Source: Ruditapes philippinarum
Lineage: Eukaryota
Reading direction: 5' to 3'
NCBI RefSeq assembly: GCF_026571515.1
Contig: NW_026851538.1
Location: forward strand, 1 to 22,163
Length of the DNA stretch: 22,163 nt
The notes under the pieces are model-generated. The model was not told the DNA's origin. It saw only the letters and a program-made list of their open reading frames with translations, and made no database searches. The stretch's first letter is position 1. Every line of letters starts with the position of its first letter. Shown here piece after piece: positions 1,379 to 19,750 of the stretch. A program made the position numbers and the translations under genes.

Positions 1379-3289
1379 TATCTTATTAATAATATATATA
1401 CATGTAAAACAAAAACTAAAATAAAAAAATAAATGTCAATGTATCTTTAACATTTTGTGTTTGTCAATTTCATAATAAAATGTCATTGAGTACCAGTACA
1501 GGAATAATATCTTCACTCTATGAATAAAATGAATTTGGGTCCACATATGGTTTATTGCTTACAAAATTACACTTTTCTGTCACAAAAACAAATCAATAAA
1601 GTTAATAAGACTTGTCAAAAAAATGACCTTCTTGTAATGTATATCTGGGTAAGATATTTTGATAAGATAAAAAATAATCCTAAAAATTATCAAATGTGCA
1701 TTGAAAGAAAAAAAAGGAGTGTTTTGTAAAATTTATTAAACAATAGCATGCAACGGTGCTAGTCACACTGGTTTGACCTAATATTTGTTTAATATTGTTA
1801 TTTAAAGATCCTGTATGTTGTAATCAGGATGTAACAACACTTAAGTAAAATTTTATATATGTATATAAATTATGCTTCTAAAAGATTCAAAACAGTAAAG
1901 AATATGTTAAATATGTAATGCAAATGTTTATAAGCAATATAACTAATCATTAAAATATATGCATTCAGTTCTGATTGAAAGATTTGGCTTAGACTTTACC
2001 GAAATAAATTTCTAATTACCTCCCTTTATTACTTCGGCAATATATTTACAAATAATGCCTTTTGGAACTTACAATATTGATAAATCTCCATTTGAGTATC
2101 ATATTTATGATATAAAAGCATAAAAAAAATTTAAGTTACAGGATCTTTAATATGTAATACCATGATCTTTAATATCATATACACATATTAAGAAAATTTA
2201 AAATCTGATTTACTTATTTTTGTCTGTACCAAGATACATTGTAGCAAAAACTTTTTTCTTCTTCTTCTATTAGTATAAGTTAATATAATACTCATCTAAT
2301 TTCATGTAAGCACTAAAGCCTGTGGTGTAATTGTATCTAATGAAAACATAAATCTTATCTTCTCTATTTTGGTAAGGTTTTAGCATGGCAATGAATACAG
2401 TAATAGGCCATATGGCGAATATTTCACTTTTTTCTGGTGGAGGAAGGGAAGAAAGGCCTCAGGTGCCCCTCCATGTATCAAATTTCAGGGCATGAACGGG
2501 CCACCCAAGTAAACCACTGTAGAACCATCAACGTTTTTGATATGCTTAGCTGGATAGCTTTTTTCACTAAAAAGATTTTCCAAAGTTGTCTTGCAGGGTT
2601 TGAACCTAGAGTGGTAAAGGTCATGTGCTTTGAAGTCAACAACCTTAACTGCATGGCAACAGCGTGTTCTATATTCAATTTCAGAATATGGGAACACAGC
2701 TTTAAAATTTAGCTTCAACTACATATGTATGTCTTGGCTTTGGACTTACATCTATCAGTGAAACAATGGGATGGGTTTAAAACTATGCTAGCTGGCATCA
2801 GCATTTTTCGTACTGCATACATATGTCTCTAGCTGGTGATTAAAATCATTTATTTTCCAGAAATATACTGATTAATATCAGTTATTATTACTCATATAAA
2901 AGTTACTCAGTCCAAGTATGTATGGTATTTTTGAAATTGTTTGATAAGAAATAAAGATATGCATGTATTAAATAATCATCAATGCTTTTATTCACATCTG
3001 TTGAGAAATAGAGGATTTTCATACAGAAAATACTGTTTTACACTCAGCCGCCCACACTCCACATTCACCTAGAAACTAGTTTCCCTGTGGAAAAAACCTG
3101 GCAATAAATTAACAGGTTAAAGTGAAACAAGAGCCATGTCAACATGGCCATCCCCTGCCGAATGTGTTTGCTCGTTGGAAGAATGTATATGTAGTAGAGC
3201 AGAATAACTCCATTTTAAGAGGTCTTTTGGTAATGAAAACTGATGGCTATAGTGATTACAGATTTGAAACCTATGTGAATACTAATGGC

Positions 3290-4067
3290 TGAAAATAACA
3301 AAGGGCAATAACTGAAAAATAATGCAGAGTAGGTTATCATTCTTGTGTGCTGCATTCCTCCTCAGTAAAATCTATCCACCTATGAAGTTTCAAGTTGATA
3401 CCTCAAATACTTTTTGAGAAAAAAATTGAATTGAAAAATTAAGTATGAAAAATAACAAAGGGCAATAACTCAAAAATAATACAGGGTAGAGTTATCATTC
3501 TTAAGCACTGCACTCCTCCTCAATGGGATCCATCCACCTTTGAAGTTTCAAGTTGATACCTCAAATACTTTTTGAGATAAGCTCTGGACAAAATAGCATG
3601 AAAAAAAACAAAGGGCAATAACTCAAAAATTGTATAGGAAAGAGTTATCATTCTTGCGCACAACATACCTCCTCAATAAGATCTATCCACCTATGACATT
3701 TCATGTTGATATCTCAAACACTTTTTGAGTTATGCTCCACTCAGGTGAAAAATTAGGTATGAAAAATAACAAAGGGCAATAACTCAAAAATTATGAAAGG
3801 TAGAGTTATCATTCTTGTGCACTGCACACCTCCTTAGTGAGATCTATGCACCTATGAAGTTTCATGTTAATATCTCATAGGCTTTTGGAGTTATGCTCTG
3901 GACAAAAATCAATTTTGAAAAATAACAAAGGGCAATAACTCAAAAATCATGCAAGATAGAGTTATCATTCTTGTGCACTGCACTCCTCCTCAATGAGGTC
4001 TATCCACCTATGAAGTTTCAAGTTGATAACTCAAATACTTTTAGAGATATGCTCCGGACAAAAATGT
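3290..4067 (+). repeat. Tandem array of about 5 copies of a ~145-166-bp unit. Unit: ..aaaataacaaagggcaataactcaaaaat..agagttatcattcttgtgcactgcactcctcctcaatg..tatccacctatgaagtttcaagttgatacctcaaatactttttgag... BIV160/Cg170-type bivalve satellite family, subfamily 1.
   Basis: The motif acaaagggcaataact recurs at about 3298, 3464, 3608, 3769 and 3925. The similarity to the bivalve satellite is from memory only, not from a search. Confidence 0.85.
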
Positions 4068-4112
4068 CGGATGGAAGGACGGACGGACGGAAGGTCGGAC
4101 GGACGGACGCAG
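4068..4112 (+). repeat. (GGAC)n tetranucleotide microsatellite (ggatggaaggacggacggacggaaggtcggacggacggacgc), immediately 3' of the array.
   Basis: Direct reading. Confidence 0.8.
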
Positions 4113-4128
4113 ACTATTTCTATATCTT

Positions 4129-4148
4129 CCGCCGAAAATTTTCGGCGG
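4129..4148. other. 20-bp perfect palindrome ccgccgaaaattttcggcgg (GC-rich hairpin), 17 bp after the microsatellite. Candidate Helitron/Helentron-type 3' terminal hairpin.
   Basis: Direct reading. The array, then microsatellite, then hairpin layout matches what is described for pearl/Helentron non-autonomous elements of bivalves. Confidence 0.75.
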
Positions 4149-5014
4149 GGGATAATAAAATCTTGAAATACCGTATGATGATAATTTACTAAAAAGAAAT
4201 CTCCAGATCAAGGAAGAGGTATAGGTAAACTGAACATTTTTTACCAGTAAAATAAATTTCTAAGGTCACAAATTCCTTTTTACAAACAAAATTTTTCTGT
4301 CTTTCTTTCTTTCCAAAGATCATGCCCTCGCAAAAGTAGGGTAAATTGTTTTCTCTTTAGAGAAATGTGTAATGCTTTTTTTCATAAGACCCAACAAAAT
4401 GATAAACACATTTAAACTTTCATCTTTGTTTTTTTCTCGTTTTACGATTTTGTGGTGACGTCTCCGAGGAGGCCCCGACCACAACTTGACTGCCTTGTAT
4501 TTCCTCTTGTGACACGCCCTCGGCATTTTTAAGTTTTCCTTGTGCTTCAACATAAAACATGACATCACGTAGCTGCTCCCTCAATTCCTGAATCTCCTAT
4601 AAATAAACATGAAATTTCTGGTTTTATTATAATTGGATTGACAAGAGTTTTTCAATTGGTATCTCTCTGTGACATTGACCTTTGACCTAATAGCCTACTA
4701 ATTAAGTCCAATCCATGGGCCTTGGGCAATGTCCCTACCAAGTTTCAAATACTTATAACAGTATGCCTCCAGATTCAAACTTCTATTAGTGAAATTTTAA
4801 ACAAGAACTGTCGGAGGACAGTACCGCTCGACTATTTGAACAGTTGTCACAAGGTTGTTTCATTGAGTATAACTAGAACTATCACTAAATGTGATTAATA
4901 CCCCACAAGACTTGCTTCGGAAATGAGGATGTTACTAGTAACAGAATACCTTGTAAAATAATTAAAATATAGAGTTTATGGTTGTGGGCAATTAAAGATA
5001 GTTGTGGTTCTTAT

Positions 5015-6957
5015 ATGTTGCATTTCCTTTCAATGTGGGTTGGCCATTGATGAAGTTTAATTGAATTACTCTGTAATAAGTCCAGAAAGACAAAGAAAAG
5101 GAACAAAGGGCAATAACTCTATAAGTCTGTATTTTGTCAAATGGAGTTATTGTTCTTGTGCACTGCACTTCCTCTTAATATCCTTGACAACTGTATGAAG
5201 TTGTATTGAATTCCAAACAGTAGTTTTCAAGTTATGCTCTGGACAAAGAAAAGTAACAAAGGGCAATAACTCTGTAATTAGTCAAGATAGAGTTATGGTT
5301 CTTGTGCACTGCACTTTCTCTTCAATGTGCTTGACCATTGTTTGAAGTTATATTATTTCCAACCATTAGTCTTCAAGTATGGTCCAGACAAAAAAAGGCA
5401 ATGGAAAAGTAACAAAGGGCAATAACTCTGTAATTACTTTTAGATAGAGTTATGGTATTTTGTGCACTGCACTTCCCCTTATTGTGTTTGACAATTGTAT
5501 GAAGTTGTTTTGAATTCCAACTAGTTGTTTTCAAGTTTATGCCTCGGACAAGGAAAAGTAACAAAGGGCAATAACTCTGTATTAGTCAAGATAGAGTTAT
5601 TGGTTCTTATGCACTTGCACTTCCTCTCAATGTGCTTGACCATTGTTATGTAGTTATATTGACATTCCAACCATTAGTCTTCAAGTTATGGTCCGGACAA
5701 AAAAGGAATAGGGAAAGTAACAAAGGGCAATAACTCTGTAATTACTTTAGATAGAAATTATGGTTCTTGTGCACTGCACTTCCCCTTTTGTTGTTTGACA
5801 ATTGTGCGAAGTTTGTTTTGAAAATTCCTAACAGTAGTTTTCAAGTTATGCACCGGACGGAAAAAGTAACAAAGGGGGCAATTACTCTGTAATTAGTCAA
5901 GATAGAGTTATGGTTCTTGTGCACTGCACTTCCTCTCAATGTGCTTGACCATTGTATGTAGTTATATTGAATTCAAACCATTAGTCTTCAAGTTATGGTC
6001 CGGACAAAAAAGGCAATGGAAAGTCAAAAACTCTGTTTAATAACTTTAGATAAAGAGTTATGGTTCTTATGCACCTGCACTTCCCCTTATTGTGTTTGAC
6101 CAATTGTAATGAAGTTGTTTTTTGAATTCCAACCAGTTAGTTTTCAAGTTTATGACCCGGACAAGGAAAAAGTAACAAAAGGCAATAACTCTTGTAATTA
6201 GTCAAGATAGAGTTATGGTTCTTGTGCACTGCAACTTCCTATCTATGTGCTTGACCATTGTATGTAGTTATATTGAATTCAAACTATTAGTCTTCAAGTT
6301 ATGGTCCGGACAAAAAAAAGCAATTGGAAAAGCAACAAAAGAGCAATAACTCTGTAAATTTACTTTAGATAGAGTTATGGTATTTGTGCACTGCACTTCC
6401 CCTTATTGTGTTTGGGCAATTGTATGAAGTTGTTTTGTATTCCAACCAGTAGTTTTCAAAGTTATGCCCCGGACAAAGGTGGAAAAGTTAACAAAGGGCA
6501 ATAACTCTGTAATTAGTCAAGATAGAGTTTTATGGTTCTTGTGCACTGCACTTTCCTCTCAATGTGCTTGACCATTGTATGTAGTTATATTGAATTCCAA
6601 CCATTAGTCTTTCAAGTTATGGTCCGGACAAAACAAAAGCAATGGAAAAGCAACAAAAGGGCAATAACTTGTAATTACTTTAGATAGAGATATTTGGTTC
6701 TTGTGCACTCCACTTCCCTTATTGTGTTTGACAATTTGTATGAAACGTTTTGAATTCCAACCAGTTGTTTTCAAGTTATGCCCCGGACAAGGAAAAGTAA
6801 CAAAAGGGCAATAACTCTGTAATTAGTCAAGATAGAGTTATGGTTCTTATGCACTGCACTTCCTCTCAATGTGCTTGACCATTGGTATGTAGTTATATTT
6901 GAATTCCAACCATTAGTCTTCAAAGTTATGCTTCCCGGACAAGGAAAATGCAAACGG
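5015..6957 (+). repeat. Tandem array of about 12 monomers of ~155 bp, organised as a higher-order repeat of two alternating variants. Type A: ..attagtcaagatagagttatggttcttgtgcactgcacttcctctcaatgtgcttgaccattgtatgtagttatattgaattccaaccattagtcttcaagttatggtccggac. Type B: ..attactttagatagagttatggt.tttgtgcactgcacttccccttattgtgtttgacaattgtatgaagttgttttgaattccaaccagtagttttcaagttatgccccggac. Same satellite family as 3290-4067, but a distinct subfamily.
   Basis: acaaagggcaataact-like anchors at about 5102, 5257, 5411, 5563, 5717, 5868, 6030, 6175, 6335, 6495, 6650 and 6805. A/B alternation read by eye. Confidence 0.85.
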
Positions 6958-6963
6958 ACGTCT

Positions 6964-7003
6964 GGACCCGACCCCGACCGACCAAACCGACCGACCGACC
7001 ACC
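6964..7003 (+). repeat. (CCGA)n / (GACC)n-type tetranucleotide microsatellite ending the second array.
   Basis: gacccgaccccgaccgaccaaaccgaccgaccgaccaccg. Confidence 0.75.
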
Positions 7004-7015
7004 GGGTGACTCCTA

Positions 7016-7048
7016 TATACCCCCCCAAACTTCGTTTTTGGGGGTATA
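7016..7048. other. Imperfect GC-rich hairpin tataccccccaaac..ttcg..gtttttgggggtata, just 3' of the microsatellite. Second candidate Helentron-type terminal hairpin.
   Basis: Direct reading. The arms differ by one C/G and one A. Confidence 0.65.
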
Positions 7049-7149
7049 ATAATGCTTACCTATATGAATACAATAAAAATTATTTTTAAAGGTTCAAAGG
7101 CTTGTTATTAAGATGCTTTATCGAGTAGATCACTGCTTTATTATTATGA

Positions 7150-7905
7150 ATGCATAAAAAATTGTCCCAAAAAAGGCACAAAATTTTCAGTAGTTTATGG
7201 AAAATACCAGCTTACAAGCAAAAACCTTTACCAAGAATTTCTAAGCCGCAAAAAAGAGGCATAATTATGAAAAAAAATAAGGGTTATGGGACTTGTGCCA
7301 ATCATGTTAAATAATCACTGAGAAACAAGTGTGTAAAATTCCAATCCATTCCCTTTCAGTATTTATGGAGATACCAGCTTACTCGCATAAACTTAACCAA
7401 GAAATTTTCTAAGTCGAAAAAGGGGCATACTTATGCAAAAAAGCAAATCAGAGTTATGAAACTTGTGTCAATCATGTTAGATAATCACAGAGAACAAGTG
7501 TGTGAAGTTTCAATCCATTCCCTTCAGCTAGTTATGGAGATACAACCTTACACGCAAAAAACTTAACCAAGAATTTCTAAGTCGAAAAAAGGGGCATAAT
7601 TATGCAAAAAAAAGCAATTCAAAGTTATGGGACTTGCGCATATCATGTTAGATAATCACAGAGAACAAGTTTGGTGAAGATTCAATCTATTTCCTTCAGT
7701 AGTTATGGAAATACCACCATACACCGCATAAACTTAACAAAGAATTTCTAAGTCGAAAAAGGGGCATAATTATGCAAAATAGCAAAATCAGAGTTATGGG
7801 GACTTGTGCCAATCATGTTAGATAATCACAGAAAACAAGTGTGTGAAGTTTCAAATCCATTCCCTTCAGTAGGTAAAAAGAATACCAGCTTACACGCTTA
7901 CATTT
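7150..7905 (+). repeat. Tandem repeat, about 4.3 copies of a ~160-180-bp unit (..cagtagttatggaaataccagcttacacgcataaacttaaccaagaatttctaagtcgaaaaaggggcataattatgcaaaa..agttatgggacttgtgccaatcatgttagataatcacagagaacaagtgtgtgaagtttcaatccattcccttcag).
   Basis: Unit starts at about 7188, 7366, 7525, 7698 and 7868. Confidence 0.75.
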
Positions 7906-7953
7906 TTTTTCTCAAGTTTTTGCTTTTCTTGAAATATTTTGGCTCATCTGGAG

Positions 7954-7967
7954 GCTGCATATGCAGC
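7954..7967. other. 14-bp perfect palindrome gctgcatatgcagc, about 50 bp after the end of the 7150-7905 array.
   Basis: Direct reading. Confidence 0.6.
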
Positions 7968-8179
7968 TTTAAGTTTTCCTTCTTCAAGTAATTGAGCAAA
8001 CATGAATTTTACACTAAGTTTCGCTGTGACCTTTACCTAATGATCATTAAATCAATAGAGGTCATCTCACTGGATAGACCAATCTCCCAGAGTGTAAACC
8101 TAGATGTTATAAAGTTATTCAGCAGAAATCAATGGGTTGCTGACAGATCAACAGATGTTATTTATATTATGTACTGATA

Positions 8180-9180
8180 GACAGATAAGAACAAAAAACC
8201 ATTCAAGAGCCAATTTGCTTGACTAGAATTTATGGAAAGAGAAGGGGGGGCTAATTCCTTAAAAACTGCTTGCAGAAATTACCTGCCCTTGATAAATAAA
8301 CAACTTAACCCCTTTCCCTCATGAGTTATATTGGTCGAAACAAGAGGGCCATGAAATGCCCTGAGGTCGCTCAACCTGTTTATAGGCCCAAGACGAAGAC
8401 GGTTGAATCCACTAGGTCACCCTTGAGAATATTTCAGGGGAGGCTTATAAAAATGGCCTTTTTCATTGAAAAGCCCCCTGGGTTACAAGTTAAAACTGAT
8501 TAATGAAAACTATTGAAAAAATTTGCCCTTAAATACTAATCAAAACTTGGGCACACCATGTTGAACTGGACCATTGCCTTTGTAAACGACTGCTTCAGTT
8601 TAAATTTCCGTTTACCAAAGCAACGAGGGGACGTCCTCAAAATACCTAAATTCCCATATTTTGCCTTCGGATTTTTTTCCATCAAGTGCTGAACTTCTAA
8701 GGGGTTTGAGATAGAGTCAAAGGCTTTTCAGCCCTTGGTTACACATTACCCTTTTTGATCGATCTGGGATCATTTTCAACCTCTCACAAGTACAAAATTT
8801 CTTTTTGGGCGATGGGAAAGGGGATTGCCCCCCCCCTTCAAACCCCCCAAACAGAAGGGGCACCACATCCCCCCTTCCTGGCAACCCCCTGATGTATCTT
8901 TTTTGGATGGGGGAACCGCTCCGGAAAAAATTGCTTCACTTTTCTTAAGCAACATATTCTCCAACGAAAACATATAATTTGGGGCCCCCCAAATAGGACA
9001 TTTTCTCACTATTTGAGGCCTAAAAGGGGGGGGGGTCGAAAGTGTGTTTGTTTTCGCGTATATTATAGGTAAAGGGTTAAGTGAAATAGTGATCTTGATT
9101 TTGTTTGTTTTTATTGTTTTTTTTTTGTTTTTGTTTTTTTCAATAAAATTAGAAAAAAATAACAAGACCTGTCAAAAGGA
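8180..9180. other. Homopolymer-stuttered, G/C-run-rich block (gggggggg, ccccccccc, gggggggggg). Part of it is a noisy copy of clean sequence nearby: 8224-8290 vs 9241-9300, and both relate to the ggggcataattatgcaaaa motif of the 7150-7905 repeat.
   Basis: Direct reading. gaaggggggggctaattccttaaaaactgcttgcagaaattacctgccc vs aaaaggggaccataattttgcaaaactgcttggcagacccttacctagcc. Confidence 0.4.
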
Positions 9181-10020
9181 CAACAGGTTCCTCGTTTTTT
9201 TTTCAGTGCTGGGATAGTGTAATTTAAAATTCACAATATAAAAAGGGGACCATAATTTTGCAAAACTGCTTGGCAGACCCTTACCTAGCCTTAATAGTGA
9301 ACTTGTTTTCAAGTTTTGAACATTAATTGTTCTTTTTATATAGATAAAGGCAAAACACTCTAAATAAAAAAACCGGAGATGGTTAACAAAATATTGCTTT
9401 CCAGGATTATCTTCCCTTTAGAAATGGCCATTTCAAAATTTTACCAGGTGAAAAAGAAGTAGAAGGCAAGAAATGAATGAAGAAGACTGTTTTTTATTTT
9501 TGCGACTTACTTATCTTTTTTGGAAGTTGTAAAATCTTTTGGAATTCTGGACTCCCAATGGTAGTAACTCGTTTCTGCCAACACTTTTTGATTGTCAAGT
9601 AACACTTATTCATCTCTTTCCTCTTTCTTGCAGATCGTGTAGTGCTTTTTTCAAGACGTGTCTGTAGCTAAAAAATTTAAATAAAGTTAATAGAAACATG
9701 ATTTTCCCTGTTAGTTTCAGTCCCATTTATATATTTAGGAAAATACGTTGGGAGGACTGAAACAAGGTCGGATAAGACAAGGGAGTCGTTGAAAATCAGG
9801 GGGTGGCTAAGGCAGTCTTGACTGTAACTTGTAAATTTTTTCTTAATCAGCTAATAATTCACCCTTAACAGATAAACGAATAATTAGCTTTGCTTGATAG
9901 TAACACCAAGATCCTTGATAACAAAGAACTTTAAACAAATGGGTCATGATGGCCCTGAAATCACTCACATGAATTTTAAAAACTCTTCCATGACAAGGAA
10001 CAAGTAAAATTGTAAACTAT

Positions 10021-11000
10021 AAAACAAAAGCAGATATAAAATCTAAATCTTAAACTGATATCACAAAGTTCATATTTGGTATCACAGAAATAGTGCATGT
10101 GTAAAAACAATACTGGTTGCTATTGCAAAGGGAAAACAACAGTTGCCACAGATGTGTACAATAGGGAAAAATCAATGACCCCATGGGGCAAATTTTCACC
10201 AAAGAGCTTTTATTTAAACAACTTGGTAAACTCTTATGAGACAATGTATCATGCTTAATATCTAAGCTCTATCTATTTGGTTTCTTTAAAAGAAGATTAT
10301 TTAAAGTTTTTACTATATACATATAAGGAAATCAATGACAGCCCAGGACAGGGCCAATATTGACCCAAGTCTTTTTATTTGAACAATTTACTTGGTAAAT
10401 ATTCACTAGAAAATGTTTCATTTTTAATATCAAAGCTCTAGCTATTTGGGTTTTCTCAAAACAAGATTTTATTTTTTTTTTCTATGTGCATATAACGAAA
10501 ATCAACTACCCACTTAGGCAGGGCCAATTTTGACCCCAGAAAATTTATTTGAACAAACTTGGTAAACACTCACTAGAAAATGTTATATCCTTAATATCTA
10601 AGCTCTAGCTCTTTTTTAAAAGATTTTTTTTTTACTATATGATGATATACAAATTAGGAGAATAAATTACCCCCCCCCCCCCCCCTCCCCGGGGCAGTGC
10701 CAATTTTTTACCCTAGAGCTTTTATTAAATAAACTTGGTACAATAAATTTAGTAAATGTCTCAATTAGTGATTGCTCTAGCACCTAGCTCCTTTGGTTTA
10801 AAAAAATAAAATAAATAAATTTTACTATATACATATAAGGAAAATCAATGACTCCCAGGGCAGGGCCAATTTTGACCCAAGGCCTTTTATTTGAACAAAC
10901 TTGGTAGACACTCACTTGAAAAAGTTTCATGCCTAATATCTAAGCTCTAGCTATTTGTGTATTTTTTCTGAAGAAGATTTTTTTTAGTTTTTCTTATATA
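10021..11000 (+). repeat. A ~130-bp header (aagcagatataaaatctaaatcttaaactgat..gtgcatgtgtaaaaaca.tactgg..cagatgtgtacaat) followed by about 5 tandem copies of a ~170-185-bp unit (tatatacatataaggaaaatcaatgac..cagggccaattttgacccaag..ttatttgaacaaacttggtagacactcac.agaaaa.gtttcatgcttaatatctaagctctagctatttg). One copy carries a poly-C run (10668-10690).
   Basis: Copies at about 10160, 10330, 10500, 10650 and 10840. Confidence 0.7.
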
Positions 11001-11043
11001 ACATAAAATAACATTAAGTATATTCAGTACTTTTGCATCATCA

Positions 11044-11072
11044 CGAAATCCAGTCGGATGGATGGACAGAAG
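11044..11072 (+). repeat. Short (GGAT/GGAC)n-like microsatellite relic: cagtcggatggatggacagaaggtaaacc.
   Basis: Direct reading. Resembles the microsatellite that ends the 3290-4067 array. Confidence 0.45.
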
Positions 11073-11899
11073 GTAAACCTAAAGTCCCCCTGGTTAATCT
11101 AGTAGGGGACCAATAAAAGCTAGTTGGGAGCATAATAAAAGGAAATAATTGCCTCAAGCTAATCATTAAGTGTAGTACTATACAATTGTTTTTCTGTTAA
11201 GGATAATATCATCTTGTGTAACATGATACTTCCTGGTTTAAAAATTAAATAAATCTATCGCTACAAGTTTACACAGGTTAAATACATAGCAGTGGATAGA
11301 CGGGAAGTGACTTGTCAGATAAGAAACTAAAGACGGCAATATCTTTAATATTCTAGACAGCAGTATAAATACCTGGTGAGTCAATTTACTCAATATCTAT
11401 GTTTAAAAATTAAATAAAACTTATCAAGTATTTATATTACTTTAAATTGATTTAAGTTTGCCCTACAGTTTAAATAACCTTGAGAGAATTTTTTTATACC
11501 CCACCCACACTTCAAACTAACTTTAAATGGTTAATATTTTATTTTGATTGGTTAATGTGACAACATGATCTGCATATTCTTAAAAAAGGAATAACCTGAA
11601 CACGTCAGTCACTAAACTATTACAAAAAGGTCATCGTAATCCTGTATTTCTCACCTGAGATATATTGCTAGGAAAGGTCACATTTTTTATTTTCCAAGAA
11701 TGACTTCCTATTTCATCTGCCTTTAATATTATTTACCCAAGCTGCATTATTCTTCAGATATTTGTAGATGTCTGCTATTAAATGCTTAATGACAAATATC
11801 TAAGCTATTGGCATTGTAGTTTTACAAAACAAGAGGGCCCTGTATCACTCACCTGAGAAACAGGTCAAAGTGGAGCCCGTTTTCACCGCAGAAGCACAA

Positions 11900-12440
11900 T
11901 TTGAAAACAAGGGACAGCTTAACCTTAACAATTTTGACCCTAAAGCAATTATTTAAACAAAGATGGCAGACATCCACTAGAAGATGTTTCATGCCAAATA
12001 TCTAATCTATAGTGCTTTTGGATTGTCATAAGAAGATTTCTTAAGTTTTTACTATATACATATAAGGAAAATCAGTGACCCCCTGGGGTGGACCAATTTT
12101 GACCCTAGGAATTTTATTTCAACAAACATGGTAGACATACACTAGAACATGTTTCATGACATTGTCCTCATGTGAGCTTAAAAAAAAGCAGATATTAAAT
12201 CTAAATCTTAAACTGATCACAAAGTTCAAATTTGTATGTGAAATAGTGCATGTGTAAAAACATTACTGGGAGAACAACAGTTCCAACAGATGTGTACAAT
12301 GACAACTTGGGGCGAGGCCAATTTTCACCCCAGGGCTTTTATTTGAACAAACATGGTAGACACCCATTAGAAGATGTTTCATGCTTAACATCTAAGCTCT
12401 AGCTATTTAAGTTTTTTAAAAGAATTTTTTTAAGTGTTTA
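11900..12440 (+). repeat. Second block of the 10021-11000 family. Units at about 11900-12170, then a duplicate of the header (12181-12290 ~ 10021-10150, roughly 80-85% identity by eye), then another unit (12290-12440).
   Basis: Direct alignment by eye of 10021-10330 against 12181-12440. Confidence 0.65.
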
Positions 12441-12461
12441 CTATTTTAAGTTTTTTCTTTT

Positions 12462-12869: not shown

Positions 12870-14262
12870 AGTCAAAATGTGATCACCAGAGTGTTCACAA
12901 GGTTTTTCCATATTTGGGCGGCGTGACCTAGTTTTTGACCCCAGGTGACCCATATTTGTCCTTCACCTAGAAATTATCAAAACAAACTTTCAGAGCAATT
13001 TCAAGTACTTTTTATTAAAACAGTAGTCACTAGAGTGTTAACAAGATTTTATATTTTTAGCTCCTGTGACCTAGTTTTTTCATCCAAGATTACCCATGTT
13101 CGAACTCATTCGAGCAATAAAGCTAGACAAGCGTCCTAAAAATCCTGAAAAAGTTTAATGATGATTGAGGCAAAAATGTGACGTTAGAGTGTTAACGAAC
13201 AAATGTGGACGGACGACAGTCGACGGACGACTGACATTTAACAATCCTAAAACCTCACCCTGAGCAAACTGTAAAATCTAAGCTTTGAGCATTATAGGTT
13301 GAAACAAGATGAAATAAATGTGTTTTCCTAGGATATAAGTCTACATAAACAAAAGGGCCCTGATTATGAAGGCTCAATCCCATATTATTTGGGCTGACCT
13401 GTGTGACCTAGTTTTTGACCCCAGATGATCCATATATACAATGTACTTGACCTCAAAATTTCATTTAAACAACCTTTCTGAACAATTTTCCTGGATATTT
13501 GGATCAAAAAACAAAAGCTTCTATAGTGTGTTTACAAGGTTTTTCCATAATATTGCTGTGTTGCCTTGGTTTTTAACACTAGTTGACCAATATTTGAGAT
13601 TGACCTAGAAATCACCAATACAACCTGTCTGACTGATTCCTAGATATTTGAATCATAACAGTAGTATCTAGAGTGTAAACAAGGTTTTTCCAGATATTGG
13701 TCTGTGTGACCTACTTTCTGACAAAAAGTGACCCATATTTAAACTTGACCTAGAAATTATCATAACAACCTTTCTGACCAATTTCTAGGATATCTGGACT
13801 GGAACAGTAGCCCCTAGAGTGTTTACAAGGTTTTCCAATACTTATGCTGTGTGACCTAGTTTTTTGACCCAAGGTTGAACCCATGTTCTTACTTTGCCTA
13901 GAAATCACCATAACAACTTTATTGACCAATTTCCAGGATATTTGGTTCAAAACAATAGCCTCTAGACTAGCAAGGTTTTTTCATATCTGGGCAGTGTGAC
14001 CTAGTTTTTGACTATCGATGACCTATATTCCAATTGAGATGGAAATGATATAAACAACCTTTCTGACCAATTTCAAGGATATTTGGATCAACATTGTAGC
14101 CTCTAGAGTGTAAACAAGGTTTTTCCATATTTGGACAGTGTAACCTAGTTTTTGACCCAAGGTAACCCATATTCAAACTTGACCTTGAAATTATCATACC
14201 ATCCTTCCTGACCATTTTCCATGACATTCTATGATAGCCCCTAGACAAGTGTGTACAAAGTT
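12870..14262 (+). repeat. Tandem array of about 9 copies of a ~148-bp unit (..agagtgtttacaaggtttttccatatttgg.c.gtgtgacctagtttttgaccccaggtgacccatatttg..cttgacctagaaattatcataacaacctttctgaccaatttc.aggatatttggatcaaaacagtagcc.ctagagtg..). Interrupted at 13140-13380.
   Basis: gtgacctagttttt anchors at about 12924, 13067, 13401, 13560, 13706, 13852, 14000 and 14143. The small minus-strand ORFs 13750-13950 and 14012-14248 are periodic repeat artefacts. Confidence 0.8.
13205..13245 (+). repeat. Degenerate (GGAC)-type microsatellite relic inside the array: gaacaaatgtggacggacgacagtcgacggacgactgac. Resembles 4050-4110.
   Basis: Direct comparison with ggacaaaaatgtcggatggaaggacggacgg at 4055-4085. Confidence 0.45.
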
Positions 14263-14346
14263 TTATGTTGATATCTCTTATTGTTTCAGAGTAATGTCCC
14301 GGACAAAGTTCAAAGTGTAAAAAGGGAACCTTTGTTGCAATATACC

Positions 14347-14548
14347 TGTTAAGTTAAATCCAACACCTTATTAATGCTAACGCCAACACTAAATAAATAT
14401 ATTTCACTTTAATGTATGGTCATAATCAACAAAGTAACTTCATTATTCCAATCCTAACGTTGCTAAGCCAGTTGATGACGTCGTGACGTTATGACGTCAT
14501 AATGACGTTATATAAAGTTTACTAAACAAAAATAAGATGAAATTAACA
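14347..14548 (-). repeat. 3' LTR of the copia element (202 bp). Contains a TGACGT(C/T)(A/G) cluster (tgatgacgtcgtgacgttatgacgtcataatgacgtta; four CRE-like half or full sites, one exact TGACGTCA) and a palindromic TATA element (tatataaag).
   Basis: Direct reading. Confidence 0.75.
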
Positions 14549-14556
14549 TTAATTAT

Positions 14557-14580
14557 ACTTTCTTTCTTTTCTTCTTTTCT
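14557..14580 (-). promoter_or_regulatory. Polypurine tract (minus strand reads agaaaagaagaaaagaaagaaagt), 8 nt upstream of the 3' LTR.
   Basis: Plus strand 14557-14580 is actttctttcttttcttcttttct. Confidence 0.6.
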
Positions 14581-14664
14581 GTGATGTTTTGAGTCATTAA
14601 AAAAACTGATGTTTTGAGTCATTAAAAAAAATGTAAGATATAAAAATGTTAAAATTCTACAAGT

Positions 14665-14973
14665 CTATATAAAATCTTTTGAAATTGTTCCTTCTTGTAT
14701 TACACACAGCAGATCATATCCGGATGCCCCACGCTTAGTCATACAGTCAGCCAAATGATGTTTCCCTGGGCACCATCGAATTTCTTTGACTTCATTTCTG
14801 GACAAGGATTCGCTGATTGCAGCTATATCTACACGAAGACGCTTGTCATCTACTAGCTTGGTTGAATTCACAGCTTCTATTACACTTCTATTGTCCACAT
14901 AAGCAATTATTGGTATTGTGTGATTGGGTATCCTTAGAGCGTTTTCGATCATTTTGTCTGTAATAATATCCAC
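14665..14973 (-). CDS. Copia RNase H C-terminal segment (102 aa; YVDNRSVIEAV .. VDIAAISE .. HHLADCMTK). Overlaps the RT ORF in a different frame, which is the second frameshift.
   Basis: ORF track, plus the copia-typical C-terminal AD..TK motif. Confidence 0.6.
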   Translation of the reverse strand: MDIITDKMIENALRIPNHTIPIIAYVDNRSVIEAVNSTKLVDDKRLRVDIAAISESLSRNEVKEIRWCPGKHHLADCMTKRGASGYDLLCVIQEGTISKDFI

Positions 14974-15964
14974 ATTCTAATCCTTCTTGTAAACTGAGAG
15001 CTTCAGCAGCAATTGTTGATCGTACTACCCTTTTTATTTTGTTGGTATGCCAGAAAAGTGGACAACATTTTCCAGAAGTGTCCATTAACCATACTATATA
15101 AGCCGCAGTGCTCCCTGTTCCAGAATTTATGTTGCACAAAGATGCATCTGTGAAGACTGCAATCTTCCAATCACCTACAAAGTTGCTCAATTGTGGGAAT
15201 CTTATAAAAGACTTGAAGTTTTTCAATCTGTTCACTGCTTTGATCGCCTGAGATAGATCACTCATTGTAGCTTCCTTGAGTTTAGTGCTCAAGTCTATCA
15301 ACTCAAATGCCATATCGGGCCTTGTTCCTTGCACTACCCAGTTAATCTGACCAATGATTTTCCTGAAAAGAGTCTGTTCTTCAGATGTTAATACTTCCTG
15401 TTTATTCTGGACTCTCTTTGTGTCAATCTGTCTGCTCTCTATGTTTTCCACATATCTAGATTGGTCCAGAATAATTGCATTGCTCTCCTGAGAAATCCTG
15501 AAACCAATATAATCAAACTGTCCTTTTTCAATTTTTCCTGCAACAAATCGTTTTCGTAATTTAGTCAGGACCTTCTCCAAACATTCATCACCAGCATGAA
15601 GAAAATCATCAACATGACAACAAATAATGCCGTTAAGCTTGTCTCCAGTGTGCAGAAAGAACATTGCTGGATCCATCTCTGATATATGACACCCTAATCT
15701 AATTAACTCGTCTTTCACACTTAGATAGAATTGTCTTGCTCCGTCTTTGAGGCCATAAAGTCCATGTTTAAGTTTCCAAATTATTCCAGCGATAGTGTCA
15801 CTTTCCTTTGGAGGTTTAATGTAGACTTCCCTCCGAATTTCTTTTCCCTGTAGAAACGCCGACTTTATATCTGTGGTTTTTACAATCCAATTATTTACAG
15901 CTGCAAGTGCAAGAAATGTTCTAAGTGTTCCTTTTCCCACTGTTGGACTGTCACTTTGCATCAC
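14888..15964 (-). CDS. Copia reverse transcriptase and the N-terminal part of RNase H (358 aa). Motifs: DIKSAFLQG, YGLKDGARQFY, CCHVDDFLHAGDE (YXDD box), QGTRPDMAF, IAVFTDAS. Different frame from both neighbouring pol ORFs.
   Basis: Motifs in the ORF track. 15964 and 18272 are in different frames. Confidence 0.8.
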   Translation of the reverse strand: MMQSDSPTVGKGTLRTFLALAAVNNWIVKTTDIKSAFLQGKEIRREVYIKPPKESDTIAGIIWKLKHGLYGLKDGARQFYLSVKDELIRLGCHISEMDPAMFFLHTGDKLNGIICCHVDDFLHAGDECLEKVLTKLRKRFVAGKIEKGQFDYIGFRISQESNAIILDQSRYVENIESRQIDTKRVQNKQEVLTSEEQTLFRKIIGQINWVVQGTRPDMAFELIDLSTKLKEATMSDLSQAIKAVNRLKNFKSFIRFPQLSNFVGDWKIAVFTDASLCNINSGTGSTAAYIVWLMDTSGKCCPLFWHTNKIKRVVRSTIAAEALSLQEGLECGYYYRQNDRKRSKDTQSHNTNNCLCGQ

Positions 15965-15974
15965 ATATTCTTCC

Positions 15975-18272
15975 TCAAATCCGCGTACAACAAGTCGAGC
16001 CTTTGTTTGACCATTTTTTGTGAGTTATCACCCATCTTGTTGATAAAGTTACCTGACCATAATCTTGAACTTCTTCATATGTGCCAAAGTGTTGCAGCTT
16101 CTGAAGTTCACAAATTTTAGCAGATGTGACTTCATCATCAGCACAAGTCTGTTTCATTACCAAATTAACCTCATTTGTTAACATTTTCCATTGAACTGCC
16201 TCCAGATTAATACTCTTCTTCTCTTTGCTGATATCTTCCTCTATATTATACCAAAACTTGTTTCTGCCTGTTGCTTTTCCAGCCCTTCCTAGTATTTTTG
16301 CTTGTATCCACTGATCTGTATCCTGTGCTCTATATTGTATGTTGTCATTTGCCTTCAATGTCCTTTCTTCAGGTGGAATATTTTGAATGTTGTTTTCCAA
16401 ACTAGCTGATGATCTATCTGACATGTTTGACTGCAAGTTCTTAAATGGATCTGAGGATGGTATGTCCTCGTTTATGGTCTGCATACTTGTCTGATCTGAG
16501 GTTTGCTGGTCAGCTAATGTGCCCTCATTAGCATTGCTTCTTTCTTCTTCCAGACTTTCATAACTGTTTGCCTCACGATTATCAGAACTCATATAATCAT
16601 TTACCCTCTGCAGCCTATTAGGCGATACTCGCACAAACACTGCTCCATGTCTAACAAACACCACTTTTCCATCTTGAAATACCACCTTTCCAGGTCCAAG
16701 CCAACGCTCTTTTCCCTCTCGCTTGTAGAAAACATTATCACCATGTTCAAAAACTTGTTCAGAAGCCCTTACTTTATTACGTAGAGCTCTCCTTATTCTT
16801 TCGTCAGCTTCCGACTGAATGAATGCTCTCCGAGCAGCATGCAAAACATTCAAATGCCTTGCAAATTCCTCACTGCTGGTGGTCCCTTGTAATGCAGGCA
16901 AGTTTTCACTCATAATATTGGGAATATTGGGGTTCTGCCCAAAAACAAGCTGATGACTGCTAAAACCATTCCACATCTGTAAAGAATTTCTTGCCATATT
17001 CGCCCATGATAGTAACGTCTGCAAGTCTACTTTCCCACAATCTGCCTGTAACTTAATCAGCATCATATCTGTTATAGCATGCACTCTCTCACATAAACCA
17101 TTCTGAAATGGACTTTGACCAGATGTTGTGCATAATTTAATGTTCAGTATTGACGTGATCTCTCTTACTTCATCTGAATTGAATTCACCACCGTTGTCAG
17201 TCATTAATGAGCCCATCATGCCAAACTTACCTACCCATTCCCTCATCAGTGCATCTATAATCTTTTCTGGCTTCTTTCTGTTGATAAACGTTGACACCGT
17301 ATATCTGGACCACATGTCTATAATGTGTAAAATCCAGCAGCCGTTCCATTGCTTAAGATCCATCGCAACTTTTTCATTGAACTTGGAAGCCATAGGCATA
17401 CCTACGACAGGCCTTGATGGAGTTTTTGCATACATCTTGCAAAGTTCACAATTGTTAGTAATGAGATCAAGAGTTTCCTCAAATTCTTCTCTCCAGATAA
17501 CTGCATCTTTCATAAGTGCTGACAGCCGTTTCTTAGGTGGGTGTGCAAATTGCCTGTGCAATTTCACAAATGTTTTGTATCTCTCATTTTTGCTTAAATC
17601 ATCAAAGTTTACAGCACAAACACTTTCTACAGGTACCTCTACCGTCTTATCTATCGGAATACAGTAATGACCTGATGTTGTCAAATTTAAAGCCACCTCT
17701 TTTCCCATAATGCTAGCTGTGTCGTTTTCTAGATCCATTTTTATAGCAGCCCTCTTCATTGCTGTCCGAGACAATAACAGGGGAATGTCCGACTCCACAA
17801 CATCTGTTTTGATGAAAACATCTTTGCCAGCAATCACTGCAGGTATACAGTATTCTCCTTTTGATGTTAGGCATGTCCCACCACCAAACTTGAAAACTCT
17901 CTGACTATCTAACTGTGTTACTCTCTGTTTATCTCCTACATCTAATGACTGTATATAGTTATTTATCCAGTTTTTACCACACACTGTACTGCTGCAAGCA
18001 CTATCAAGAACAGCACAATTTCGAGCATCTACACCCAAACGCTGAATCTCATCCTTATTGTAACCTGTAAACAATACTGCATGTTCCTCTTCAACAGCAT
18101 TCACTTTCTTCATGTTTTCCCAGCTATGGGGGCATGCCTGTAGCAGATGCCTATATGAACCACAAGACTTGCAGGTAAGCGTTCTTCCATCTGGACCAAT
18201 AGGATTGATGTTCTTTGCAAGACCTTTTCTGTGACTGTCTTGAGCAATGTCTGAACGCTGAAACTCTTTCAT
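15975..18272 (-). CDS. Copia gag(C-term)-protease-integrase ORF (765 aa). CCHC zinc knuckle CKSCGSYRHLLQAC. Aspartic protease VLDSACSST. Integrase HHCC (HRQFAH..CELC) and DDE core (HIIDMWSRY .. TDNGGEF .. CERVH). An acidic/Ser-rich linker, then the start of RT (TLSTRWVITHKK). Frameshifted relative to the downstream RT ORF.
   Basis: Motifs read from the supplied translation. Domain order PR before IN before RT is diagnostic of Ty1/copia. Confidence 0.8.
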   Translation of the reverse strand: MKEFQRSDIAQDSHRKGLAKNINPIGPDGRTLTCKSCGSYRHLLQACPHSWENMKKVNAVEEEHAVLFTGYNKDEIQRLGVDARNCAVLDSACSSTVCGKNWINNYIQSLDVGDKQRVTQLDSQRVFKFGGGTCLTSKGEYCIPAVIAGKDVFIKTDVVESDIPLLLSRTAMKRAAIKMDLENDTASIMGKEVALNLTTSGHYCIPIDKTVEVPVESVCAVNFDDLSKNERYKTFVKLHRQFAHPPKKRLSALMKDAVIWREEFEETLDLITNNCELCKMYAKTPSRPVVGMPMASKFNEKVAMDLKQWNGCWILHIIDMWSRYTVSTFINRKKPEKIIDALMREWVGKFGMMGSLMTDNGGEFNSDEVREITSILNIKLCTTSGQSPFQNGLCERVHAITDMMLIKLQADCGKVDLQTLLSWANMARNSLQMWNGFSSHQLVFGQNPNIPNIMSENLPALQGTTSSEEFARHLNVLHAARRAFIQSEADERIRRALRNKVRASEQVFEHGDNVFYKREGKERWLGPGKVVFQDGKVVFVRHGAVFVRVSPNRLQRVNDYMSSDNREANSYESLEEERSNANEGTLADQQTSDQTSMQTINEDIPSSDPFKNLQSNMSDRSSASLENNIQNIPPEERTLKANDNIQYRAQDTDQWIQAKILGRAGKATGRNKFWYNIEEDISKEKKSINLEAVQWKMLTNEVNLVMKQTCADDEVTSAKICELQKLQHFGTYEEVQDYGQVTLSTRWVITHKKWSNKGSTCCTRI

Positions 18273-18283
18273 GCCTGATTTTC

Positions 18284-18523
18284 CTAATTTCCCCTTTTCC
18301 AGTTTCCTCTGCTGCCTCCATTATAATTCCCTTGTTGAATTCTTAATTTGGAGTAACCTGCAGCAAGTAGCGCCTCTTCATTTGCTGCAAGAAAAGCAGG
18401 TTCTAGTTTGATACTTGAGCTGCCACTTGACATATTCATGTCATTACCCTTAAACTTTTTCAGTGACTTCTTAGCCTGTTCGTACAATGTAGCTTTTTCA
18501 TCATAATTCACCACCAGTCCCAA
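18284..18523 (-). CDS. Short gag-like ORF fragment (79 aa) upstream of the main gag-pol ORF. The N-terminal part of gag is presumably lost in the stuttered block 18530-19105.
   Basis: ORF track; its position relative to the zinc-knuckle ORF. No recognisable motif of its own. Confidence 0.35.
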   Translation of the reverse strand: MGLVVNYDEKATLYEQAKKSLKKFKGNDMNMSSGSSSIKLEPAFLAANEEALLAAGYSKLRIQQGNYNGGSRGNWKRGN

Positions 18524-18529
18524 AGACTA

Positions 18530-19105
18530 GCACCGCCCTCCCCTTGGAAATGTTCCGCCCTCAGAAAGTAGTTTTAAAAGCCAAAAAATTCAGCAGGCAA
18601 ATGTCCCTACTTTTCCCTTTTAATTTCCCTATCTTTTAATCAAAACGTACCATATTTATTTAAAAATTTGGGTTGGAGAAACTTAATAAAATCCTTTCCA
18701 AAAAAACCTAATTTTTTTAAATGTCCCGTTAAAAACCAAACCCCTTTTTGGAAAATGTGGTCCCCGAAATAAAGAAAGTCCCAAACCAAACATCATTTTT
18801 AAATCCCCGTTTGTATTGGTTTTAAAAAATTTCAGTATTTTAGATTCATCATCCCCTTGGGGAATGATAAAGCCCAAAATTAAAACCCCCTTTGTCTTTT
18901 TTAAAATTCTGGAATTTTCCCCCCATGCCAAAAAATTTCCCGTTTTTAAAAACCTTAAAACTTCCCTTCCCCTTTTTTTAGTTTTGGAGGATTTATCCCC
19001 GGTGCCCCTATTAAACCCCTTTAAATGTTAAAAAATACCCAAAATGTTAGAAAATAACAAATGTCTAACTTTTGTAAAAAAACCTGGAATAGTTTCCCCT
19101 CCCCT
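18530..19105. other. Homopolymer-stuttered block inside the copia element, between the 5' LTR and the recognisable gag (e.g. tccccgaaataaagaaagtcccaaaccaaac, ccccttttttt, ttttttt). It should contain the PBS and the gag N-terminus but is unreadable as such.
   Basis: Direct reading. Same doubled-base texture as 1-340 and 8180-9180. Confidence 0.4.
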
Positions 19106-19289
19106 TGTTAATTTAAATAACATATTAATCTAGAACACCTAAAAAATATTTTTCATTAATGAGGTATAATAAAAGTAACTTCATTATTCCAATCCTAACG
19201 TTGCTAAGCCAGTTGATGACGTCGTGACGTTATGACGTCATAATGACGTTATATAAAGTTTACTAAATAAAAATAAGATGAAATTAACA
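19106..19289 (-). repeat. 5' LTR of the copia element (184 bp). The right 118 bp is near-identical to the 3' LTR. The left part is diverged or stuttered (ccttgttaatttaaataacatattaatctagaacacctaaaaaatatttttcattaatgaggtataat vs cctgttaagttaaatccaacaccttattaatgctaacgccaacactaaataaatatatttcactttaatgtatggtcataat).
   Basis: Direct alignment by eye. Confidence 0.7.
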
Positions 19290-19750
19290 ATACCCCCATC
19301 ACAGAAGTTTTTGACAGAGATGTGGGCATTATAAATAAGCATATAGGAAATATGCATTGGGCATCTGGAAAATATCTGGATATTTTATCATCTCTAGTGA
19401 TTTTTTATCTGATTTTTCACCCCTATGTGTGACCTTGACCTTAGCCGCAGGGACCTAAATTTTGTGCGCGACACTCCGCTTTACAATGGTGAACATTTGT
19501 GCCCGGTTATATTGAAATCCCTCTATGCATGTAAATTTTTGCTCCGGACAAGCCGTTTTAACAATGATCCTAAAAAACACTTGAAAACTTCAAAGCATGC
19601 TTCAAACAACGACTAAAATCTAAAAGATAATTTGGTTTTCCTAATTGAATTAAGGGTGTCATAAAATAAAGGAAAGAGGCACTGATGGCAATTACGTATT
19701 AGCATTAAAATCTTAATGAGTAAAATACATAATAACCAGTATTGAACATT

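Follow-up and report, generated by a model that had tools for sequence, protein, structure and literature searches.

The 22,163-nucleotide stretch of Ruditapes philippinarum DNA analysed here (contig NW_026851538.1, positions 1 to 22,163; hereafter the window) very probably contains, between positions 3126 and 7052, two old and separate insertions of non-autonomous Helentron-type transposons, both on the minus strand. The two elements, designated E1 and E2, are of the HINE type and have the layout described for pearl and DTC84 elements. Each is built from a tandem array, a tetranucleotide microsatellite and two structured ends. Their anatomy is complete, sharply bounded relatives of them recur between flanks that are unrelated from locus to locus, and their subterminal inverted repeats (subTIRs) co-vary between the two ends.

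The elements were delimited against a comparison set of 120 loci, which was obtained by scanning metagenome contigs with the monomer box of the arrays and comes mostly from the JGI samples Ga0224511 and Ga0224510. These loci carry L-numbers (L002, L075, L083, L089, L109 and others) and are metagenome contigs of animal host DNA, not of the source genome; the animal origin is indicated by L083, which holds a ZFHX-like exon whose closest named protein is from a gastropod (60%). A clam homologue of the TRIM-like protein of the window belongs to another metagenome. The parts of E1 and E2 are as follows.

3126–4160, minus strand: E1, complete HINE-type non-autonomous element, ~1.03 kb; both termini set by comparison with other copies
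3126–3134, minus strand: E1 3´-terminal motif AACAAGAGC (element strand: GCTCTTGTT); similarity begins exactly here in 20 copies with unrelated upstream flanks
3133–3148, minus strand: E1 3´ palindrome GCCATGTCAACATGGC; a different palindrome stands at the same position in each subfamily
3150–3162, minus strand: E1 3´ subTIR ATCCCCTGCCGAA; 12/13 match to the reverse complement of 4141–4153
3292–4067, minus strand: E1 central array, 4.9 × 156 bp (5 copies)
4068–4109, minus strand: E1 microsatellite, (GGAC)n on the plus strand and (GTCC)n on the element strand; same last-monomer junction in at least 15 other copies
4123–4154, minus strand: E1 5´ hairpin, formed by the 5´ subTIR (4141–4153) paired with the internal inverted repeat (4129–4136)
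4157–4160, minus strand: E1 5´ end
4871–7052, minus strand: E2, complete HINE-type element, 2.18 kb
4871–4879, minus strand: E2 3´-terminal motif AACTAGAAC (element strand: GTTCTAGTT); same variant in L109 and L075, with unrelated upstream flanks
4881–4895, minus strand: E2 3´ palindrome ATCACTAAATGTGAT; in its place, L109 has ATCGCTGTAAGCGAT and L075 has ATCA..TGAT
4897–4911, minus strand: E2 3´ subTIR AATACCCCACAAGAC, degenerate; 11/15 match to the 5´ subTIR TATACCCCCAAAAAC, by inspection
4950–5102, minus strand: degenerate first monomer of the E2 array
5103–6952, minus strand: E2 central array, 12 monomers of ~155 bp arranged as six a/b dimers (308-bp higher-order unit)
6964–7004, minus strand: E2 microsatellite, (CCGA)n on the plus strand and (GGTC/TCGG)n on the element strand
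7016–7048, minus strand: E2 5´ hairpin, formed by the 5´ subTIR (7034–7048) and its internal complement (7016–7030)
7046–7052, minus strand: E2 5´ terminus ...ATAATAA; likeness to other copies ends at 7049–7053

In the HINE layout, in which the subTIRs measure 11–15 bp, a 5´ subTIR, a complementary internal repeat and a GTCY/GTCC/GTCK microsatellite occupy the left end, tandem repeats occupy the centre, and a 3´ subTIR and a palindrome occupy the right end (PMC7492417, PMC4067079). Every one of these parts is present when E1 and E2 are read on the minus strand. The order on the element strand is a T run, the 5´ subTIR with its internal complement, the GTCY-type microsatellite, the ~155-bp array, a spacer, the 3´ subTIR, the palindrome and the terminal motif. 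The orientation follows from the position of the microsatellite and the hairpin, which come after the arrays on the plus strand, and from the microsatellites themselves, whose minus-strand sequences are (GTCC)n and (GGTC)n. The GC-rich hairpin consists of the 5´ subTIR and the internal complement with which it pairs, and is not a Helitron-like 3´ hairpin. Pearl and DTC84 elements have been drawn in the reverse direction, as L, core repeats, (ACGG)n and R (PMC3879986), which corresponds to the plus strand of the window. A preliminary description of this DNA, made from the letters alone, had proposed a pearl-type architecture, and the parts of the pearl/DTC84/HINE layout are indeed present. It had also expected 5´ termini upstream of ~3290 and 5015; 3´ ends were found there instead, at 3126 and 4871. 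The extent that it gave for the modules was near right in its coordinates, but the elements reach further, to 3126 on the left and to 7052 on the right.

The two arrays, each followed by a tetranucleotide microsatellite and a GC-rich hairpin, had been recognised in the same description, and Tandem Repeats Finder (TRF) and folding confirm them with coordinates within a few bases. TRF reports array 1 at 3292–4065 with a period of 156 bp (4.9 copies, 81% matches) and array 2 at 5121–6948 with a period of 155 bp (11.9 copies) and also with a period of 308 bp (5.8 copies, 86%); the 308-bp unit scores better than the 155-bp unit. The exact 16-mer ACAAAGGGCAATAACT occurs 11 times in the window, against a chance expectation of ~1e-5 occurrences, on the plus strand only and always within array 1 or array 2. 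Monomers of array 1 are ~80% identical to one another. In array 2, two types of monomer alternate: odd monomers are 82% identical to odd ones and even monomers 88% to even ones, and identity between the types is 76%. Array 2 is therefore a dimeric higher-order repeat with a 308-bp unit. Between the arrays, monomer identity is 64% and the microsatellite motifs are (GGAC)n and (CCGA)n, in agreement with the earlier assignment of the arrays to different satellite subfamilies with different microsatellites.

Between the dimers of array 2 (5256–6800), 41 of the 47 indel columns are changes in the length of homopolymer runs, and long C and G runs lie near the array (10670–10690; 8830–9040). These homopolymer indels may be long-read errors left uncorrected in the assembly, in which case the apparent monomer identity would be lowered.

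Each microsatellite, (CGGA/GGAC)n at 4068–4109 and (CCGA)n at ~6964–7004, adjoins the final monomer of its array, and the hairpins begin 10–20 nt further on. The E1 hairpin contains a perfect 20-bp palindrome at 4129–4148, and its stem reaches 4123–4154. The E2 hairpin at 7016–7048 has 15-nt arms that are 87% complementary. When folded as single-stranded DNA, both hairpins are better than 200 of 200 shuffled sequences, with z-scores of −4.0 to −5.1 for E1 and −3.6 to −4.1 for E2.

The ends of both elements recur in the comparison set, so that the check proposed in the preliminary description for the ends of other arrays gives a positive result: 24 and 6 further copies of the two terminus types were found, on contigs of another animal. 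Array 1-like repeats, 70–77% identical to array 1, are present in 90 of the 120 loci. At 24 loci, which represent the main type, the last monomer (..TTATGCTCCGGACAAAAAAG) runs into (GGAC)n and GAGTCGATTACTATATGCCACCCTTCGGGGGCATAAAAA, beyond which the sequence differs from locus to locus; three loci have the E1-type hairpin ATCCCTCCGCCTTCGGCGGGGGATAA. The E2-type end, in which (ACCG)n precedes ACCAGCTGACTCCAGTATACCCCCTAAAACTTCGTTTGTTGGGGGTATAATAA, occurs in six loci, and likeness to the window ends at 7049–7053. The E2-type hairpin is retained in six other copies even though its sequence differs. At the opposite end, 17–20 copies of the main type start abruptly after unrelated sequence with AACAAGAGC-TTT-GTCACAGAACGTGAC-CAATGCCCCCGAAGG, which consists of the terminal motif, a palindrome with a 5-bp stem and an inverted copy of the 5´ subTIR. 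In general form, this end consists of AAC(A/T)AGAGC and a small palindrome, followed by the hairpin arm in inverted orientation. With both ends defined, 13 full-length copies were delimited, which measure 339–902 bp and contain one to about four monomers; with E1 and E2 included, array length varies among copies from 1 to 12 monomers. The tandem repeats keep a fixed orientation relative to the flanks, and a GTCY-type microsatellite stands beside the 5´ flank in all aligned copies. Within each type, the aligned copies pass from last monomer to microsatellite at one and the same junction; the three L100-type copies differ in how the monomer ends.

The two subTIRs co-vary by subfamily. The same repeat is found at both ends in the main family (ATGCCCCCGAAGG), in the E1 type (ATCCCC(C/T)GCCGAA), in L089 (CCCCGACA) and in L075 (CCCCATG). 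The 3´ palindrome likewise varies with its pairing kept (GTCAC..GTGAC, AATTCG..CGAATT, GCCATG..CATGGC, ATCAC..GTGAT, ATCGCT..AGCGAT). Seven variants of the 5´ hairpin were folded: five are good (z −2.5 to −4.1), the sixth folds less clearly, with a z-score of −2.0, and the seventh, with a z-score of −0.9, is not above shuffled sequences. The degenerate 3´ subTIR of E2 was located through homology with other copies, and its position is homologous to those in L089, L075 and L109. A search with 11-mers allowing at most one mismatch gave only a chance-level match, outside the element. The E2 3´ module has twins in L109 (AACTAGAACTATCGCTGTAAGCGATTCATACCCCC) and L075 (AACTAGAGCTATCAGGGAAGGTGATGAATACCCC), the upstream flanks of each being unrelated, and is also homologous to the 3´ end of a complete E2-type copy in L089. 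The 15 delimited copies (the 13 full-length copies, E1 and E2) show no visible target-site duplication. The termini lie within A/T runs of 2–6 residues, the length of which differs by copy; in 9 of 17 copies, the base that flanks the 3´ end is A, which is T on the element strand.

Two independent insertions were one of the two origins offered in the preliminary description and are the better supported of them. E1 and E2 differ in subTIR, palindrome, terminal motif and microsatellite motif, each is closer to relatives on other contigs than to the other, and each has its own pair of ends, which points to independent insertions. The other origin, a local segmental duplication of one module of array, microsatellite and hairpin that then diverged in place, would account for two modules that are adjacent, co-oriented and alike in build. 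It is nevertheless highly improbable, given that monomers are only 64% alike between the arrays compared with 80–88% within them, that the subTIR, the 3´ palindrome, the terminal motif (AACAAGAGC in E1, AACTAGAAC in E2) and the microsatellite motif all differ, and that closer relatives of each variant lie on other contigs. Self-BLAST also finds no duplicated flank between 4160–4870 and the surroundings of the other module. The arrays might alternatively belong to one composite element with two consecutive arrays, comparable to Cg_HINE_10_13 or Cg_HINE_11_12 of the oyster. Such two-array HINEs are known, with arrays up to 1.2 kb apart in a minority of copies (PMC7492417), and the arrays of the window are related and co-oriented. 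However, each array has a complete 5´ end of its own (hairpin, microsatellite and terminus, at 4157–4160 for E1 and at 7052 for E2) as well as a separate 3´ end (at 3126 and 4871, respectively), and both end types are found separately in other loci. Because each array has both ends of its own, a single two-array element is excluded, and we assign it a next to negligible probability.

A different question is which machinery moved the elements. Pearl and DTC84 were first interpreted as miniature inverted-repeat transposable elements that a cut-and-paste transposase mobilises, leaving AA as the target duplication. The inverted repeats near both ends and the A runs in which E1 and E2 start and finish on the plus strand would fit this interpretation, and AA has been described as a putative target-site duplication (PMC3879986). 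The ends are strongly asymmetric, however, with a hairpin and a microsatellite at one and a palindrome and GCTCTTGTT at the other, and the inverted repeats are subterminal. The terminal A/T run differs by copy (2–6), as in Helentrons, with no other target-site duplication seen, and the same structures are shared with autonomous Helentrons of other animals (PMC4067079). A cut-and-paste origin is thus improbable.

Several points weigh against the assignment of E1 and E2 to Helentron-type transposons. The comparison copies are just 70–85% identical to the window and come from the DNA of another animal. A six-frame search for the Rep motif (E.Q.RG.[PL]H.H) gave no match in the window and the 120 loci (550 kb), and the only transposon open reading frames (ORFs) of the window are copia-type. 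The link to a rolling-circle enzyme is suggested by structure and by the literature, and only the dispersed copies lead us to infer mobility. E2 has a degenerate 3´ subTIR (11/15). Taken alone, the 3´ palindromes hardly beat shuffled sequences (z −1.5 to −2.3); their support comes from their position and their conservation across copies. The proposed likeness to pearl and DTC84 draws on motifs that the publication on these elements quotes (PMC3879986).

By analogy with Helentrons and HINEs, the hairpin and palindrome ends would be recognised in trans by a Helentron Rep/helicase. The 5´ hairpin would serve as the start signal and the 3´ subTIR with the palindrome as the stop signal. Rolling-circle (peel-and-paste) copying would then place new copies in T-rich sites with no target duplication. 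Once inserted, an element may change the length of its internal array through unequal exchange or slippage. The E2 array probably grew in 308-bp dimer steps, which would fit unequal exchange once the dimer was established, and such dimer-wise growth could be a route by which HINEs seed satellite arrays. Both elements are old, because the monomers of array 1 are only ~80% alike, the subTIRs of E1 match at 12 of 13 positions and the 3´ end of E2 is degenerate.

A further module that resembles a 3´ end lies between the two elements.

4800–4836, minus strand: solo 3´-end-like module, AACAAGAAC and palindrome ACTGTCGGAGGACAGT; 35 bp outside the E2 3´ terminus

A partner 5´ end was sought for this module and none was found. 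On the other side of E2, a co-oriented array of 170 bp × 4.2 (7186–7897) starts 134 bp past the element and has no microsatellite. It is followed by a perfect 14-bp palindrome, GCTGCATATGCAGC, at 7953–7966. The 170-bp array shows marginal similarity to array 1 (z 3.2; similarity z-scores, here and below, are from local alignment against shuffled controls) and has no relatives among the 120 fetched loci. By eye, homology was suspected between 4160–4800 and 7900–8300; it is unsupported by self-BLAST.

These features raise the possibility that E2 was inserted into an older element, of which the solo 3´ end at 4800–4836 and the body at 7186–7897 would be the remains. Such nesting is compatible with two separate Helentron-type insertions. 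The position of the solo module, with its AACAAGAAC and a palindrome with a 6-bp stem, 35 bp outside E2 agrees with it, as does the co-oriented array that begins 134 bp beyond the E2 5´ terminus; the summed spacer of ~200 bp falls within the range from the 3´ end to the first monomer in other copies. On the other hand, a search to the right of 7897 yielded neither a fitting 5´ end nor a microsatellite or inverted partner, and the 170-bp units are only marginally like array 1 (z 3.2) and lack relatives in the fetched loci. We regard nesting as a tentative and somewhat unlikely explanation.

The neighbourhood contains other candidate elements. The interval 10022–11127 holds a Cg170-like array of about six 169-bp units, which passes into a degenerate (GGAT/GGAC)n microsatellite at 11054–11075. 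After the microsatellite come a hairpin, GTCCCCCTGG..TAGGGGAC, and AATAAAA, and the same end is present in L095. This interval resembles a third HINE, oriented like E1 and E2, and seems to be the real carrier of Cg170-type repeats. A second type of 3´-end module, AAACAAGAGGGCC..GGCCCTG..TCGCTCACCTGAG..AAAGGTCAAAG, lies at 8337–8375, 9929–9965 and 11826–11875 on the strand of E1 and E2 and is common to at least 15 fetched loci. The window has at least six Helentron-type 3´ ends (3126, 4800, 4871, 8337, 9929 and 11826) of at least three families, all co-directed within 9 kb. In the fetched loci L002, L006 and L075, two different HINE subfamilies also stand 150–270 bp apart and co-oriented, as in the window. 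Across the fetched loci, neighbouring arrays have the same orientation in 16 cases and the opposite orientation in 7, which is not significant. The locus could reflect more than chance neighbours, through oriented insertion of HINEs beside resident HINE termini or through read-through past a 3´ end, but we consider this unlikely. If true, such places would be nurseries in which repeats carried by elements grow into true satellite arrays, and the dimer-wise amplification of E2 to 12 repeats would be part of this picture.

Other repeats and genes of the window are set apart from these elements. At 12888–13106, 13208–13235 and 13399–14277, a 145-bp repeat family comprises an array of ~6 units and a detached 1.5 units; a (GGAC/CGAC)n microsatellite there leads into the flank CCTCACCCTGAGC, which recurs in L105, L011 and L063. 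A perfect palindrome of 154 bp at 1228–1381, with 77-nt arms, no spacer and 100% self-complementarity, represents a foldback element or else an artefact of the assembly. A Ty1/copia long terminal repeat (LTR) retrotransposon occupies 14347–19292 on the minus strand. Its RVT_2 and rve ORFs are split by a stop, and its LTRs (14347–14551 and 19106–19292) are 86% identical and contain ATGACGTC repeats. An intronless ORF at 19781–21550 encodes a 589-aa B-box/NHL (TRIM71-like) protein. Its best relatives form a very large set of Ruditapes philippinarum paralogues (up to 86% identity), with Mercenaria next, which places the source among venerid clams, and an exact look-up found no identical protein on record.

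E1 and E2 are added members of an element type that is already known and are ordinary in a clam genome, but they form a clean example. HINE/pearl-type elements are the chief carriers of short satellite-like arrays in bivalve genomes, and their detailed dissection in the literature consulted concerns mainly the Pacific oyster and Donax. For several subfamilies in a venerid clam, both ends are now defined, comprising AAC(A/T)AGAGC with a palindrome, co-varying subterminal repeats and a conserved 5´ hairpin. These definitions are useful for repeat annotation and for the study of how transposon-borne repeats become satellites; they leave current understanding unchanged.

Among known systems, DINE-1/HINE elements of Drosophila, mites and mosquitoes (Thomas et al. 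2014, PMC4067079) share with E1 and E2 the 12–15-bp subTIRs, the internal repeat near the 5´ subTIR and the 3´ stem-loop. Terminal T strings of varying length and an optional microsatellite with central repeats are further common features, and insertion at TT would be another. There is, however, no sequence relationship, and autonomous Helentron partners were identified there and none here.

The repeats were compared with those of oysters, for which the Cg170/HindIII consensus was taken as CgiSat01a/b (PMC8268682). Cg170/HindIII (CgiSat01) and BIV160 have a similar unit length and are also carried by HINEs, and the preliminary description had likened the modules to Cg170/BIV160-bearing Helentrons. 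Arrays 1 and 2 show no detectable similarity to CgiSat01a/b (z −0.5 to 1.7, thus at most 1.7), and the matches are instead to CgiSat21 and CgiSat10, Helitron-associated satellite DNAs of C. gigas (PMC8268682, Data S1). Array 1 is similar to CgiSat21 (z 10.7, ~225 bp aligned) and array 2 to CgiSat10 (z 9.8, including GGGGCAATAACTCTGTAATTA). This similarity is significant but distant and is centred on conserved boxes, and the oyster units are composites of 433–441 bp. The ACAAAGGGCAATAACT box belongs to a lineage common to oyster CgiSat21 and CgiSat10 and not to Cg170. The Cg170-like repeat of the window lies elsewhere, at 10022–11008 and 11929–12444, and has a z-score of 9.8 to CgiSat01b (10209–10614 aligned). 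A similarity of 64.6% between BIV160 and Cg170 has been reported, and membership of arrays 1 and 2 in BIV160 is unlikely, by inference only. The monomer box is absent from the Cg_HINE and BIV160 supplements, and matches in literature text are unrelated primers only. 'Cg170/BIV160-bearing' is thus probably the wrong label for both arrays, and 'Pearl/DTC84-type' appears better, as judged from motifs.

DTC84 of Donax trunculus and the pearl CvG type of Crassostrea virginica consist of an L flank, ~160-bp core repeats, an (ACGG)n-type microsatellite and an R flank with short inverted repeats (PMC3879986), and E1 and E2 follow the same plan. The DTC84 core repeats end in TTGTCCGGACAA, followed by AAAGGT and then by (ACGG)n (PMC3879986). 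The monomers of the window end in ..TCCGGACAAAA.. and are joined to an ACGG-type microsatellite via AAAAGG. In both systems, the cores close with the conserved ..TCCGGACAA.. palindrome box, then AAA(A)GG, then the microsatellite, and repeat variants alternate in a fixed order. The difference lies in copy number: E2 has 12 repeats compared with up to five in DTC84, and thus exceeds the usual limit of about six.

A counterpart with the same layout is Cg_HINE of Crassostrea gigas (Vojvoda Zeljko et al. 2020, PMC7492417). Its parts stand in the identical order, with central repeats of ~140–180 bp in fixed orientation, T-rich insertion sites, no target-site duplication and many subfamilies that mix flanks and repeats. 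E1 and E2 differ in that the host is a venerid clam and the termini and repeats are other sequences; the flanks were compared by layout. In oyster CgiSat05, a terminal AACTAGAGC with a palindrome can be read across the unit junction, so that the 3´ signal seems to be common to oysters and clams.

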